Numbered from the stretch's first letter, positions 40,430 through 63,329 are shown. The stretch: DNA of 64,000 nucleotides from Halobacteriovoraceae bacterium (GCA_002713145.1 PAVS01000017.1:3824-67823); one strand, 5' to 3'. The notes: generated by a model from the sequence alone, not told the origin. Translations and numbers: made by a program.

Positions 40430-41215
40430 CTAGATAGCTATATCTTCGTGTGATTCGAAATCGTTTTTAAGTTTGGCCTTGAGTTTAAGTATGGCCTGTG
40501 TATGAAGTTGAGACACTCTGGATTCAGTCACATCCAGTACCTGACCAATTTCTTTAAGGTTGAGATCTTCAAAGTAATAAAGGGATAAAACTAATCTTTG
40601 TTTCTCAGGTAATGATTTAATACCATCTCTTATGATTGACTGTGCTCTTTTGTAATTCACAGCAGAAAAAGGATTTGACGATCTTCTATGCTCAAGAAGT
40701 CCCATCATAAGCTTTTTGTCTCCACGACTAAATGTCGTTGAGTCGTCAATATTTAATAGAGACACTGACTTAGACTTGTTGATCATTTCATGGAACTCTT
40801 CCATAGAACACTCAAGCTCTGCGCACATCTCATCATCAGTTGCCGGTCTACCGAATTCTCGCTCTAACTTAGCGTAAGCTTTCTCAAGAGTCTTACTCTT
40901 TTCACGAACTGATCTAGGAACCCAATCTTGTGATCTTAGTTCATCAAGAATTGCCCCTCTTATTCTAAACTCAGCATATGTTTTAAATTTATTATCTCTC
41001 GTTGGGTCGAACTTTGAAATGGCATCCATAAGTCCGATAACACCGCATGAAATTAAATCATCAAGCTCAATATTAGCTGGTAATCTAGCCGCAATTTTCT
41101 GAGCAATGAAGCGAACGAGTGGAGCGTACTCAACGATAATCTCGTCCTTAACCTTAGGATCCATAGTACATCTATAATCTTTGAGGTTTTTTAATTTGGC
41201 GGTTAGTGAAGACAT
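40430..41215 (-). CDS. fliA: Flagellar sigma factor FliA (sigma-28)
   Basis: Group-3 sigma-70 family. Region 2 reads YAPLVRFIAQKIA...DLISCGVIGLMDAISKFD, and region 4.2 reads LNLKEIGQVLDVTESRVSQLHTQAILKLK. It is the last gene of the flagellar export operon. Confidence 0.9.
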   Translation of the reverse strand: MSSLTAKLKNLKDYRCTMDPKVKDEIIVEYAPLVRFIAQKIAARLPANIELDDLISCGVIGLMDAISKFDPTRDNKFKTYAEFRIRGAILDELRSQDWVPRSVREKSKTLEKAYAKLEREFGRPATDDEMCAELECSMEEFHEMINKSKSVSLLNIDDSTTFSRGDKKLMMGLLEHRRSSNPFSAVNYKRAQSIIRDGIKSLPEKQRLVLSLYYFEDLNLKEIGQVLDVTESRVSQLHTQAILKLKAKLKNDFESHEDIAI

Positions 41216-60074: not shown

Positions 60075-60108
60075 ATACTTAGATTATAAAATCTCAAAAA
60101 GGAATACC

Positions 60109-60522
60109 ATGTCAACATTCACTGCTGGGAAGGAAGTTCTCTCATATTGTGGAAAGTGTAAACTTGCACTTGGACATACTATCGTGGTTATGAAAGACCC
60201 GCAAACAATTGGAAAAGTTAAATGTAACACTTGCGGGGCAGTACATATGTACAAAGATCCCGCGACTAAAACGAAGAAAGTTAAATCCAAAACCACTTCT
60301 ACTCGCAAGAGCAAAAAGTCCGTTTCAGTGGGACAACTCTGGATGGAAGAGATGGGTAAAGCCAGTGGTAAAGCAGAGCCTTATTCTATTCGCAGTAAAT
60401 TTGTTGTAGGTGATATTATTGATCATAAAAAATTTGGTCCGGGAATTGTTCAGGCCCTTATTGAAGATAAGATCGAAGTCCTCTTTCAACATGAACTTAA
60501 ACTTCTTGTTCACGGAAAATAA
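60109..60522 (+). CDS. Zinc-ribbon protein with a basic linker and a small C-terminal beta domain (DUF3553-like?)
   Basis: Start chosen at ATG 60109 (MSTFTAGKEV). It has CGKC...CNTCG, a Lys/Thr/Ser-rich linker, and a C-terminal FVVGDIIDHKKFGPGIVQAL...IEVLF. Confidence 0.45.
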   Translation: MSTFTAGKEVLSYCGKCKLALGHTIVVMKDPQTIGKVKCNTCGAVHMYKDPATKTKKVKSKTTSTRKSKKSVSVGQLWMEEMGKASGKAEPYSIRSKFVVGDIIDHKKFGPGIVQALIEDKIEVLFQHELKLLVHGK

Positions 60523-60527
60523 TCCAT

Positions 60528-60557
60528 AAAAAAAGGGAGCCTTCGCTCCCTTATATT
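60528..60557. terminator. Bidirectional intrinsic terminator between convergent genes
   Basis: A7, then GGGAGC-CTTC-GCTCCC, then TTATATTCTC. On the minus strand the hairpin is followed by T7, which serves the glycine-rich gene. On the plus strand it is followed by a moderately U-rich tract. Confidence 0.7.
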
Positions 60558-60578: not shown

Positions 60579-61511
60579 TTAAAATCCACCGCCGAAGCCA
60601 AAACCTAGATTAACTCCCAGGTTAAAGGGTGAATATCCAGCATTGTATCCACCGCCGCCGAAACCGCCGTAGCCACCGTAACCGCCGCCGCCACCAGCGT
60701 AGCCTGCGTAATTCATCTGAGCTTGCCCCACTTGATTAGCGAGAGCCGCTTGTTGGTAATAGCTTCCAGCTTGTAGTGAAGCCTGGTTAGACATATGTGA
60801 GTTTTGAACCGCCCAAAAACCATTTTGACCATTCACACTATTATTCCAATATGACCCACCTTGTGGGAAACCTGCTTGACCATTCCAGCCACCAAAGCCA
60901 CCGTTTCCACCATAGTATCCACCGTAGCCGCCATTATAAGGGTAACCACCAAAGCCACCTTTACCGCCACCAAGACCAAAGCCTATATTAAGACCTCCGC
61001 CGTAGCCAGGCATGCCAAAGCCTCCACCTCCGAAGCCTCCATAACCAGCCCCTGGACAAGGAGCTTGAATACACATCACCCCTCCATTTCCGAAGCCGCC
61101 GTTACCAAAGCCACCGAAACCGCCATATCCTGGTGCAGGCATGCTAGTACCGAAACCACCATACCCTGGCATTCCAAATCCTCCAGCTCCAGGCATTCCA
61201 CCTCCAAAGCCAGTATTAAGTCCAACTCCAACTCCGAAACCACCACCTGGCATTCCAAAGCCACCGCCTCCCATTCCAGGGAAGCCACCCATTCCAAATC
61301 CTCCACCATAAGGTCCTGCTAATCCTCCATAAGGATTTCCAAAACCTGCCGAGGCATTAAAGTATGGATTATATCCTAGACCTGGCCCGTACATGCCCCC
61401 TAAGAAACCTCCGGTGTATCCACCTGAAGTCCATGGGTTTCCGAAACCGCCATATCCGTTTCCAAAATAACCATTCCCAAATCCAGCATAGCCACCAAGA
61501 CCATAACCATT
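60579..61511 (-). repeat. Glycine-codon-rich low-complexity coding repeat region
   Basis: Degenerate reiteration of GGN-TTY/TAY-GGN units produces spurious ORFs in other frames on both strands (60797, 60861, 61076, 61400). Confidence 0.8.
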
Positions 61512-62636
61512 GCACTCCGGTGGTATAACCTCTCTATCTGGTAATTCATTGCCTGAAATATATCCATATGTGGCGTCCACATAATGAGTTTGCATCATTC
61601 GACATTGCTCAAAACCAGTAGCTGCTGCCCCGGCCCAAGCTTCATTGGAACCTAGATAAGCATTGGCCCAAGCTTTTTGTCCCATATACCCCATGACTGG
61701 AGGAAGGACAGCGCCTGCCACTTCAGCGACCCCACCGAGAATTCCTCCCCAGTCGGTTCCTGATTTTTGTTCACGGTAGCGAACCTGACAGTCAGCACAG
61801 TTAACGATATCTCCTGTGCGAGTCATGATCACGCCATATCTAGCTCCTAAACATTGGTTTAAATCTCTATCTGAACTACAAGCAGCGAGCATATCTTCAA
61901 CGGATAAACCACCTCGAATACTCACTCGTGGACCTCCATCAACATAAACTCTGCGAGAACCATTCCCCTGATCGATATCGTTACCTACGACCCAATCAAT
62001 ATCCGACCCTCTCACTTCTGCTCTTCTACATTTACTTTTTAAATTGCCATTAGAATCTAAACAGATTCTTTGATATTCAGAACCACCCACAGTGATTAAA
62101 TTACCATCAACATAAATTTGATCCCCTCTTCTAAAAGGACCTAGATCTATATAAAAGCCTCCGCCAGATCCGCCGGAAACTCCACCTGATCCCCCGCCAG
62201 GACCACCTTCCCAGCCTTCACGATCAGCTCTTCGGCCGAGTTCAATAAGTCTTTCTCTCTCTTCAGCATCACCGATTATTTCTCTCTCCGCTTGGTCAGC
62301 AATTTGCTCTGTTGTTTGCAACTGAACACATTCTCTTTTCCAAGCACCAACATAAGCTCCACTTGAGCCTCGTTGTAATTCAATTCCTTCGGCGATACTC
62401 ACACCTTCATCAACATTCGCCGTGGCATAAACACAACGAACACGAATACATCTTTCCGTTTCTGAGGTTGATATATGTTCTCTTTCTGAAGTGTTACCGG
62501 GTTGTCTTAAACAAGCGGCCATTAAATCATTAACCGCGCTATCAACCCTCTGGTCCGCATTTTCGGCAAGTGCTAGACTTGGAATTGCTCCCATGAGCAA
62601 TAGTAACGTTAGAGTTTTTGAACGAATTCCCATCAT
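60579..62636 (-). CDS. Secreted protein with a Cys-rich N-terminal domain and a ~310-aa Gly/aromatic low-complexity C-terminal region
   Basis: Signal peptide LLLLMGAIPSLALAEN, with 12 Cys in residues 40-375. Residues ~376-685 are GGFG/GYGG/GMPG repeats ending LGVNLGFGFGGGF. An AGGTGA RBS lies 5 nt before the ATG, and the coding GC content is conspicuously higher than neighbouring DNA. Confidence 0.75.
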   Translation of the reverse strand: MMGIRSKTLTLLLLMGAIPSLALAENADQRVDSAVNDLMAACLRQPGNTSEREHISTSETERCIRVRCVYATANVDEGVSIAEGIELQRGSSGAYVGAWKRECVQLQTTEQIADQAEREIIGDAEERERLIELGRRADREGWEGGPGGGSGGVSGGSGGGFYIDLGPFRRGDQIYVDGNLITVGGSEYQRICLDSNGNLKSKCRRAEVRGSDIDWVVGNDIDQGNGSRRVYVDGGPRVSIRGGLSVEDMLAACSSDRDLNQCLGARYGVIMTRTGDIVNCADCQVRYREQKSGTDWGGILGGVAEVAGAVLPPVMGYMGQKAWANAYLGSNEAWAGAAATGFEQCRMMQTHYVDATYGYISGNELPDREVIPPECNGYGLGGYAGFGNGYFGNGYGGFGNPWTSGGYTGGFLGGMYGPGLGYNPYFNASAGFGNPYGGLAGPYGGGFGMGGFPGMGGGGFGMPGGGFGVGVGLNTGFGGGMPGAGGFGMPGYGGFGTSMPAPGYGGFGGFGNGGFGNGGVMCIQAPCPGAGYGGFGGGGFGMPGYGGGLNIGFGLGGGKGGFGGYPYNGGYGGYYGGNGGFGGWNGQAGFPQGGSYWNNSVNGQNGFWAVQNSHMSNQASLQAGSYYQQAALANQVGQAQMNYAGYAGGGGGYGGYGGFGGGGYNAGYSPFNLGVNLGFGFGGGF

Positions 62637-62724
62637 AATTTCACCTAAGTTTATGGTTTAATCCCATCTACATTATAAACTATTAAATAAATGCCTTTGA
62701 GTCGGAAAAATCCTCCTCTTGGGT

Positions 62725-62752
62725 TTGTCGGCTAAAATCACGAATAACTTTA
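62725..62752 (-). promoter_or_regulatory. Candidate sigma-28 (FliA)-type promoter, TAAAGTTA-N12-GCCGACAA
   Basis: The minus strand reads TAAAGTTA (62752-45), a 12-nt spacer and GCCGACAA (62732-25), compared with the enteric consensus TAAAGTTT-N11-GCCGATAA. It lies about 90 nt upstream of the glycine-rich protein ATG. Confidence 0.45.
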
Positions 62753-62795
62753 ATAAATACGCTTAAATAATTGATTTTATAGAATTGATGAGCAA

Positions 62796-62822
62796 TAAAA
62801 AAGGACCTCAAATGGGGTCCTT
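62796..62822 (-). terminator. Rho-independent terminator after the 62862..63329 gene
   Basis: The minus strand reads AAGGACC-CCATTTGA-GGTCCTT followed by TTTTATT. Confidence 0.6.
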
Positions 62823-62861
62823 TCTCTTTATAATAATATAATAATGAAAATTTGAAGCTAA

Positions 62862-63329
62862 TTACTGAGCAGCGTGCTCAGGTCTTTCTGTTCTAGGATT
62901 AAATTTCTTCATATTGCGCACAAGAAATTCCACTAACTCATCATCTGATCCATAAACATCATCCACAAGATCAGAGTTCAGTAAAAAATCTCTCACTCTA
63001 TTAGCAACATTATGAAGGGACTCAACCATATAAAGTCCACCAAGAGACTCACCTTGATAAGATTTGATGATCTCTTTACGAGCGTGGTTAAACATTTCCG
63101 TTTCGGTAATGTCTTCTGGAATATCTTCTAAACCAAACTTCTCTTCTACCTCTTCAATAGCTTGATCACGAATATCTTCATCCGTTGAGAAAGCAACTCC
63201 AAGTTCTGTGGCCAAAGCATCAATAAGATCAGCTCTTTTGTCTACCTGATATTCAATTACATTATCTTGTTTTAAATGATTAACAGTATGTGTGGCCAAT
63301 GAGATCAGCGTGCTAAAATCAGTTCTCAT
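62862..63329 (-). CDS. Acidic cytoplasmic hypothetical protein (DUF507-like?)
   Basis: 155 aa, helical and Asp/Glu-rich (DEDIRDQAIEEVEEKFGLEDIPEDITETE). It has its own terminator. The family assignment is not secure. Confidence 0.5.
   Translation of the reverse strand: MRTDFSTLISLATHTVNHLKQDNVIEYQVDKRADLIDALATELGVAFSTDEDIRDQAIEEVEEKFGLEDIPEDITETEMFNHARKEIIKSYQGESLGGLYMVESLHNVANRVRDFLLNSDLVDDVYGSDDELVEFLVRNMKKFNPRTERPEHAAQ

Follow-up and report, generated by a model that had tools for sequence, protein, structure and literature searches.

Here, we describe a previously unnamed protein family that is restricted to predatory bacteria of the Bacteriovoracaceae and Halobacteriovoraceae and whose members join a cysteine-bearing core domain to a glycine-rich tail. 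Its representative in this study is X, a glycine-rich gene carried by a 64,000-nucleotide (nt) stretch of DNA from a Halobacteriovoraceae bacterium (GCA_002713145.1, PAVS01000017.1:3824-67823), referred to as the window. The open reading frame (ORF) of X occupies 60579..62636 on the minus strand and encodes 685 amino acids (aa); residue numbers below are those of its product. X is a real, conserved gene, far beyond what chance would produce, and intact homologues of the same architecture are present in >60 genomes. We place at roughly even chances the reading that X is an attack-phase, Sec-exported, disulfide-bonded structural protein of the envelope or cell surface, which would assemble through its helices and self-associate through a cohesive or elastic disordered tail resembling abductin or FG domains.

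Bdellovibrio-like predators have been studied as living antibiotics. To our knowledge, almost all molecular work on such predators concerns Bdellovibrio itself. X is a near-signature of the other major predator lineage, the marine Halobacteriovorax/Bacteriovorax group, in which it occupies a fixed locus and is usually single-copy.

A protein family confined to one predator lineage

A word-based search with residues 25-375 returned eight relatives of 421-677 aa, one of them titled "hypothetical protein, Bacteriovoracaceae bacterium." Whole-genome searches showed the gene to be intact in 7 of 8 genomes of the same genus and also in several further genera, with orthologues 573-678 aa long, and the identical protein is encoded on 4 Tara Oceans contigs (PRJEB1788). 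Thus, the frameshifted or absent orthologues in close relatives that the original prediction, a reading of the DNA alone, had named as a reason for doubt are not what we found.

Profile A2, which covers the core domain of X in 178 positions, was scanned against 1.84 billion representatives and matched 140 cluster representatives at E<1e-3 (94 at E<1e-10). X scores 2.7e-82 against this profile and has every invariant family residue. The relatives range from minimal forms of ~210 aa, consisting of a signal peptide, the core, and a short Gly-rich stretch, to proteins of >800 aa with bigger N-terminal extensions. All named relatives belong to Bacteriovoracaceae, Halobacteriovorax, or Bacteriovorax, and all are annotated as "hypothetical" or "putative membrane protein." Among 301 Bdellovibrionota genomes, the core was present, mostly as a single copy, in 63 of the 68 from Bacteriovoracaceae/Halobacteriovoraceae and in none of the 233 from other families.

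Scans of whole X, its N-terminal 376 aa, and seven relatives against Pfam and NCBIfam yielded no match, and none of the Pfam glycine-zipper families (Gly-zipper_Omp, Gly-zipper_OmpA, YMGG, Rick_17kDa_Anti) reached E<=1 with the same queries. A search of PDB sequences with the core profile gave 0 matches at E<=10. In these searches, the N-terminal part thus matched no characterised family; a clear match of this kind was another reason for doubt named in the original prediction. The core domain merits a family entry of its own: it spans ~170 aa, has four invariant Cys and 140 cluster representatives, and is without a relative in Pfam, NCBIfam, or PDB. The H. marinus SJ homologue offers a cultured member for knockout work; the genome matching H. 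marinus SJ encodes a 539-aa member at about 561.9-563.5 kb. Bacteriovorax sp. DB6_IX (EQC44119.1) is a further cultured member.

Domain architecture and a conserved core

The start codon of X is an ATG at 62636, six bases after AGGTGA. Its predicted signal peptide (MMGIRSKTLTLLLLMGAIPSLALA, with EN following the cut) has an AXA cleavage site and is without a lipobox, and signal-peptide-like N termini are found family-wide. Residues 1-375 contain 12 Cys (positions 42, 63, 68, 103, 192, 203, 253, 262, 280, 283, 345, and 375), and two more, 522 and 527, lie within an MCIQAPCPG motif. An alignment of 15 sequences gives a constant block order: the signal peptide, a variable Cys-paired N-terminal extension, the conserved core, a Gly-rich region of variable sequence, (M/T)C(I/F)(Q/T)APCPG in some members, a ..SYWN.. 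motif, a Gln/Asn block (SYYQQAALQNQ), and the C terminus GYAPYSPxNMGxSLxxGWGFGF. Intact family ORFs of 540-860 aa keep this order.

Structure was predicted with AlphaFold2 in two runs, one for the full protein (86 homologues; mean predicted local distance difference test [pLDDT] of 57) and one for residues 239-432 (105 homologues). The N-terminal extension consists of an alpha/beta domain (C42/C63/C68/C103), a G/S spacer at residues 144-160 (GGPGGGSGGVSGGSGGG), and a small beta domain (C192/C203). In the full-length model, the first domain spans residues 27-140 at pLDDT 75-89 and the second spans residues 161-210 at 78-95. The four Cys of the alpha/beta domain are invariant in 15 close relatives.

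The family-defining part is the core, whose signature is C-x8-C, CxxC, a long Gly/Ala-rich helix, C...C-N-G, and the block GNGxGGFGNPWxxAGYSPGFxGGMxGP. Six residues do not vary across 105 core sequences, which also underlie the column and hydropathy statistics below, namely, C280, C283, C345, C375, G385, and G406; C262 is kept in 99%. Entropy in the family alignment is lowest in the block at residues 375-418, the best conserved part of the entire protein, in which N376, G389, G396, G397, Y407, G417, and P418 are also conserved at >=90%. What had appeared to be the start of a low-complexity tail is thus a specific conserved motif. The original prediction of a secreted protein with a Cys-rich front half and a low-complexity rear half is supported; its division into a head (1-375) and a tail (376-685) misses the natural boundary, since the core runs from ~245 to 418 across the proposed one.

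The helix at residues 296-362 is single in both AlphaFold2 runs, with pLDDT 74-91 (82-91 in the full-length run). A Foldseek search with the full model found no credible fold match (best E of 0.18 in PDB and 0.046 in BFVD). The isolated helices of 66 and 39 residues in the monomer models, the latter in the Gln/Asn-rich region described below, suggest oligomeric packing.

At the start of the long helix, a hydrophobic segment of 20-24 residues is conserved in all members. It raises the alternative of a bitopic inner-membrane protein with a cleaved signal peptide, a Cys-paired periplasmic N-terminal part, a span at residues 299-322, and a tail that would form a cytoplasmic, membrane-tethered condensate region, for example as an organiser of the flagellated pole. 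Short members, acidic before the segment and Lys-rich after it, fit such an N-out/C-in topology; weak Pfam noise matches of the segment point to transmembrane families, one member is annotated "putative membrane protein," and the sigma-28 promoter described below would also be compatible with a link to the pole or flagellum. However, the best 19-residue Kyte-Doolittle hydropathy of the segment has a median of only 1.28, with >=1.6 in 9 of 105 sequences, and the segment holds a conserved Glu and a Pro-Pro. The bias of flanking K/R is inconsistent (upstream, 43; downstream, 41) and changes sides among subfamilies, and the subfamily of X is Arg-rich on the periplasmic side. AlphaFold2 extends the helix by ~40 further amphipathic residues, and the Cys that follow the segment (invariant C345 and C375 and even-numbered Cys in the tail) are better explained by disulfides outside the cytoplasm. 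Because the median hydropathy is low and the flanking-charge bias inconsistent, a transmembrane helix at this position appears unlikely, and we judge the bitopic arrangement improbable.

An uncharged tail of conserved composition and variable sequence

Residues 376-685 of X (310 aa) are 41% G, 9% Y, 9% F, and 8% N, and K559 is the sole charged residue among them. They include 21 FG and 13 YG dipeptides, 14 GGFG and 4 GMPG units, and aromatic residues at a median spacing of 4. Few glycine/aromatic polymers as extreme in their lack of charge have been seen in a bacterial exported protein. As had been noted from the sequence, the gene also includes the most GC-rich stretch of the window: the kilobase at 61001-62000 has a GC content of 0.499, and the runner-up has 0.431. 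Recent tandem-repeat expansion of the DNA was considered as the origin of the tail and rejected, since Tandem Repeats Finder detected nothing beyond short arrays and exact direct repeats reach 17 nt at most.

The stretch that follows the core was compared in 75 members; its median length is 244 aa (range, 103-487), with 34% Gly, 14% aromatic residues, 14% Asn plus Gln, and a median of 2 charged residues (0.9%). The partner residues of Gly vary by lineage, being F/Y in X and M/P/Y, N/W, Q/F, or I/V elsewhere. As composition is kept while sequence drifts, selection acts on composition, i.e., on an uncharged chain of Gly plus hydrophobic or aromatic residues, rather than on sequence. Such a pattern typifies disordered regions that are material-like or cohesive. 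In the full-length model, residues 417-609 are unstructured (pLDDT about 33), as are residues 645-685 (pLDDT below 50), and between them lies a Gln/Asn-rich helix (residues 608-646; pLDDT 69-76).

The paired-Cys motif of the tail takes the forms (M/T)C(I/F)(Q/T)APCPG or CMCISAPCxCG in relatives, and Cys occur in 17 of the 75 tails, each time in an even number (2, 4, or 8). Together with the invariant Cys after the long helix, these even counts fit disulfides and hence an extracytoplasmic tail; we infer both export and disulfide formation from such features of the sequences. The spacer, the MCIQAPCPG interruption, the Gln/Asn patch, and the aromatic C terminus (GVNLGFGFGGGF) that had been singled out in the original prediction are all present in X, and the last three are conserved family motifs.

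An ordered state of the tail has to be weighed as well, namely, a functional amyloid or polyglycine-II fibre in which strands such as LNIGFGLGG, VGVGLNTGFGG, and NLGVNLGFGF stack into an ordered extracellular assembly of cross-beta or polyglycine-II type. X has x-N-x-G-x-G-x-G strand-like motifs, which are more regular in relatives (e.g., GGGINIGLGGGLGG in the genome matching H. marinus SJ), it is rich in Gln and Asn, and low pLDDT is compatible with ordered homo-oligomeric assemblies. Yet neither the sequence of the tail nor its dominant partner residues are conserved, and a specific amyloid core would seldom vary in this way. Accessory genes of the curli, Fap, or TasA type are absent from the surroundings of X, and there is no Pfam or PDB sequence similarity to suggest such a fibre. 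We consider this explanation very unlikely.

The C terminus resembles the beta-signal of outer-membrane proteins recognised by the beta-barrel assembly machinery: it has a terminal Phe and alternating hydrophobic and small residues (F-G-G-G-F-G-F-G-L-N-V-G-L from the C terminus), with a family consensus of ..N-M-G-L-S-L-S-A-G-W-G-F-G-F, or, more generally, GYAPYSPxN(M/L)GxSLxxG(W/F)GFGF. In X, F685, F681, F679, and L677 fit, and position -3, one of the four (-3, -5, -7, and -9) expected to be hydrophobic, is Gly. Unlike known substrates, X has no predicted upstream barrel; F, Y, or W is the last residue in only 45 of 75 members, and several carry one or two extra residues past the motif. Pfam and NCBIfam scans matched X to no outer-membrane protein family. 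Since the models lack the barrel domain that defines the class, X is not assigned to the outer-membrane beta-barrel proteins. The C-terminal strand may nevertheless act as a docking strand or form part of an oligomeric barrel. Of the earlier suggestion that the C terminus resembles an outer-membrane targeting signature, the conserved aromatic end stands; as this end adjoins no predicted beta-barrel, a porin-type signal would be putative. A shared sorting tag was also considered and rejected: a hidden Markov model of the last 90 residues, run against 4129 ORFs, found only X and its counterpart on contig C1 of the same assembly.

A FliA-type promoter and a conserved leader

Upstream of X is a sigma-28 (FliA)-type promoter, also written TAAAGTTA-N12-GCCGACAA, which we evaluated by phylogenetic footprinting with the pattern TAA[AG]-N15-17-CCGA[ACT]A. 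Of 19 family members scored, 14, from >=7 genera, have this pattern 71-154 nt upstream of the start, and the genome-wide density predicts 0.005 per 250 nt; two further members (L017 and L026) are, by eye, one base off. The X promoter reads TTAAAG-N17-CCGACA, with a -35/-10 spacing one base longer than the enteric consensus, and three orthologues have an exact TTAAG-N16-CCGACA. Similar pairs, TAA(A/G)-N-(G/T)(C/T)CGA(A/T)A, precede the eight flagellin genes of the assembly.

Mapping in Bdellovibrio bacteriovorus placed TTAAG-N16-CCGATA at 92 of the 140 promoters of the attack phase, and these FliA-type promoters control, besides flagella, cell-surface proteins and many uncharacterised ones (Karunker et al. 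2013, PMC3627812). X resembles those attack-phase genes in promoter type, in its predicted exported and uncharacterised product, and in its predatory host; it differs in that its family is absent from Bdellovibrionaceae and that its regulation is read from motif conservation rather than from mapped starts. Literature searches found no transcriptome paper for the Bacteriovoracaceae/Halobacteriovoraceae lineage. In the assembly studied here, a strict motif (TAAA-N15-17-CCGA[AT]A[AT]) precedes 34 ORFs, mostly with signal-peptide- or lipoprotein-like N termini, which suggests that here, as in Bdellovibrio, the attack-phase regulon of FliA is broad. One of the 34 encodes a lipoprotein of 2221 aa. 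On the strength of motif conservation, X is probably expressed in attack phase under FliA. The original prediction had offered, as speculation, an elastic or adhesive matrix, a flagellar sheath or envelope component, and a phase-separating material. A promoter of this type would suit a function in the envelope or at the surface during attack phase and does not single out the flagellar sheath or a strictly flagellar function.

A flagellar role, with X as a late (class III-like) gene for a sheath- or basal-body-associated component of the sheathed polar flagellum, would explain why X shares its promoter type with the flagellin genes of the genome, and it would suit both the predicted export of the product and the presence in the window of a large flagellar cluster with flhF, flhG, and fliA. 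However, X neither lies in nor adjoins any flagellar operon and sits instead between murJ and uvrC, sigma-28 motifs precede many nonflagellar exported proteins in this genome, and Bdellovibrionaceae have sheathed flagella yet are without the family, as are all 233 nonfamily genomes. We therefore hold a flagellar component to be quite unlikely.

Outer-membrane porins are the binding partners of disordered, glycine-rich regions in colicins and of gp38, the polyglycine-rich adhesin of T-even phages. By analogy, X could be an attack-phase factor directed at prey, which is released or displayed at the predator surface and sticks to prey cells, threads prey porins with its uncharged Gly-rich chain in colicin-like fashion, or inserts a Gly-zipper-like helix into the prey membrane. 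The attack-phase-type promoter, the confinement to an obligate predator lineage, and small-xxx-small motifs in the long helix favour this, as does the fast evolution of the N-terminal extension and tail (30-60% identity, versus 75-86% for neighbouring genes), as expected of interaction surfaces. What argues against it is that X is usually single-copy at a fixed housekeeping locus, without a diversification cassette or paralogue expansion, and has no secretion system, immunity gene, or chaperone beside it. Moreover, Pfam, PDB sequence, and Foldseek searches revealed nothing that resembles colicins, gp38, or pore-forming toxins in sequence or fold, and the best-conserved element is the Gly/aromatic block and not a receptor-binding tip. 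A prey-directed function is unlikely on balance.

Between the -10 box and the ribosome-binding site is a leader element that is near-invariant across nine orthologous loci and occurs in the assembly only at X and its C1 counterpart. Within this element lies a small dyad that is CGGAA..TTCCG in some orthologues and GGGAA..TTCCC in others, a symmetric change. RNAalifold found no consensus structure and Rfam gave no match; with its uniqueness in the genome, this leaves a structured RNA or a regulon-wide motif unsupported. Candidate roles for the leader are that of an operator and that of a hairpin that stabilises the 5' end.

Proposed role and resemblance to known systems

In the reading we prefer, FliA would drive monocistronic expression of X, and the product would be exported by Sec as a structural protein of the envelope or cell surface. 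After cleavage of the signal peptide, its Cys pairs would be oxidised in the periplasm, and the long Gly/Ala-rich helix and the Gln/Asn-rich helix would mediate self-association. Between these helices lies the Gly/aromatic block, followed by the variable, uncharged disordered region; the latter would be a cohesive polymer that works like an entropic spring, much as abductin or cohesive FG domains do, and the alternating aromatic C-terminal strand would dock to the outer membrane or to a partner. We infer the oligomerisation, the material-like role of the tail, and the localisation.

Two known systems come closest in composition. Cohesive FG domains (GLFG type, Nup98/Nup100 class) and FUS-like G/Y prion-like domains are, like the tail of X, uncharged, rich in N, Q, and G, and dense in FG or YG, with predicted disorder and a composition that is conserved while sequence drifts. 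The tail differs in its putative extracytoplasmic location, its far higher glycine content, an aromatic spacing of ~4 (about 15-20 in FG domains), and the absence of a transport-receptor context. Abductin, the elastomer of the molluscan hinge ligament, has a consensus of GGFGGMGGGX, a random-coil elastomer model, and a small Cys/Tyr N-terminal domain (PMC13052691). In abductin and X alike, a short Cys/Tyr-bearing N-terminal part is followed by a Gly-dominated, near charge-free region with closely and regularly spaced Phe/Met and little secondary structure; the GGFG and GMPG units of X, and the GGMGGMYPG-type units of its relatives, recall the abductin consensus. X is, by contrast, bacterial and much larger, and it has the conserved 170-aa disulfide/helix core, the Gln/Asn helix, and the conserved C terminus. 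Its repeats are degenerate, and the likeness lies in composition only.

Several points weigh against the envelope-material reading. X has no sequence homology to abductin (no Pfam or PDB sequence matches) or to FG domains, so that both resemblances are compositional. The long helix might be anchored in the membrane by its hydrophobic first part, in which case the tail would be cytoplasmic; one member is annotated accordingly, and 9 of 105 sequences reach classical transmembrane hydropathy. The AlphaFold2 model from 86 sequences contains no beta-barrel, which leaves the C-terminal "beta-signal" without an obvious barrel. These models are of monomers, which are unable to test oligomerisation, and low pLDDT in glycine-rich sequence is no proof of disorder, as polyglycine-II and cross-beta assemblies score low too. 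Lastly, literature searches found no paper on the family.

A bolder extension holds that the family is an extracytoplasmic bacterial counterpart of animal entropic elastomers or FG hydrogels: an uncharged Gly/aromatic polymer, anchored by disulfides and deposited during attack phase in the envelope of Bacteriovoracia predators, which would provide compressibility or sealing as the predator squeezes through, and then plugs, the narrow entry pore in the prey wall. We regard this extension as doubtful. If the tail is elastic or gel-like and extracytoplasmic, it would be a new bacterial envelope material and a convergent counterpart of abductin and FG domains.

Gene neighbourhood and related loci

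The order murJ > acidic155 (the gene of an acidic 155-aa protein) > X, followed by a convergent zinc-ribbon gene and then uvrC, is found in 18 of 20 related loci (L002-L021) that hold a copy of X and sufficient flanking DNA. The genome matching H. marinus SJ (L022) retains only the murJ and acidic155 half, and one genome contains, at another place, a second, short family copy (L024) that is without any of the usual neighbours. Coordinates of the features of X and its surroundings are collected in Table 1.

Table 1. Features of X and its locus, in window coordinates.
Feature	Coordinates	Strand	Remarks
Zinc-ribbon gene	60106-60522	+	137-155 aa; CxxC...CxxC, DUF3553-like C terminus; convergent to X
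Intrinsic terminator of X	60533..60552	-	27 nt past stop codon
Coding sequence of X	60579..62636	-	685 aa plus stop; open through 685 codons
Gly/Tyr stretch and C-terminal alternating hydrophobic/Gly strand motif, residues 647-685	60582..60698	-	..YSPFNLGVNLGFGFGGGF
SYWNN motif and Gln/Asn-rich helix, residues 595-646	60699..60854	-	Consensus ..SYWN..G....Q.S...NQQA....SYYQQAALQNQ
Variable charge-free Gly/Phe/Tyr/Met/Pro region, residues 419-590	60867..61382	-	pLDDT about 33
Paired-Cys motif CIQAPCPG, residues 522-529	61050..61073	-	Variants in some relatives
Near-invariant Gly/aromatic block, residues 375-418	61383..61514	-	CNGYxLGGxAG..GNGxGGFGNPWxxxGYxxGFxGGMxGP
Family-defining core, residues 245-418	61383..61904	-	~170 aa; C253-C262, C280xxC283, long helix, C345, C375, Gly/aromatic block
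Gly/Ala-rich helix, residues 296-362	61551..61751	-	Predicted; ~66 residues; hydrophobic first third ILGGVAEVAGAVLPPVMGYMG
Lineage-specific N-terminal extension, residues 25-210 (up to ~240)	62007..62564	-	Absent from short family members
Sec signal peptide, residues 1-24	62565..62636	-	ALA-E cleavage site, read from sequence
Ribosome-binding site AGGTGA	62641..62646	-	AGGTG kept in orthologues
Leader element GGAGGATTTTTCCGACTCAAAGGCATTTATTTAATAGTTTATAAT	62672..62716	-	~45 nt; between -10 box and ribosome-binding site
Sigma-28 (FliA)-type promoter of X	62725..62753	-	TTAAAG-N-GCCGACAA
Intrinsic terminator of acidic155	62800..62823	-	Hairpin AAAGGACC..GGTCCTTT, then T-run
acidic155	62862-63329	-	155-aa acidic cytoplasmic protein; upstream of X, same strand
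fliA	40430-41215	-	Just downstream of flhG

X is predicted to be monocistronic because a terminator lies upstream, it has a terminator of its own, and the intergenic region upstream measures 225 nt. Neither of the two small flanking genes has an above-threshold Pfam or NCBIfam family. The acidic protein is 56-86% identical across the X-bearing family in the genomes and loci searched. A functional tie between X and acidic155 was rejected, as acidic155 also occurs in Bdellovibrionota families without X and a terminator separates the two genes. That distribution, together with the better conservation of the neighbours (75-86% identity across loci, versus 30-60% for X), suggests that X was inserted here in the family ancestor.

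The whole window is colinear with part of another contig of the assembly (G000:C1:194000-254300) at about 66-81% nucleotide identity, from which it follows that the assembly (contamination, 8.3%) holds two related genomes. The glycine-rich gene on that contig (C1:196412-198376; 654 aa) is accordingly an orthologue from the second genome, and its interpretation as a paralogue was rejected. The sigma-28 motif is missing directly upstream of this copy. Between it and the acidic-protein gene is an extra ORF of 149 aa (G000:C1:195882-196331, plus strand), which resembles a detached copy of the Cys-paired N-terminal extension of the X family. A second exported protein of the same general design and unrelated sequence is encoded at G000:C4:150600-152744 (minus strand); its 714 aa comprise a Cys-containing globular N-terminal part, a charged helical middle, and a charge-poor Q/G/M/F tail that ends in GGTPFNF.

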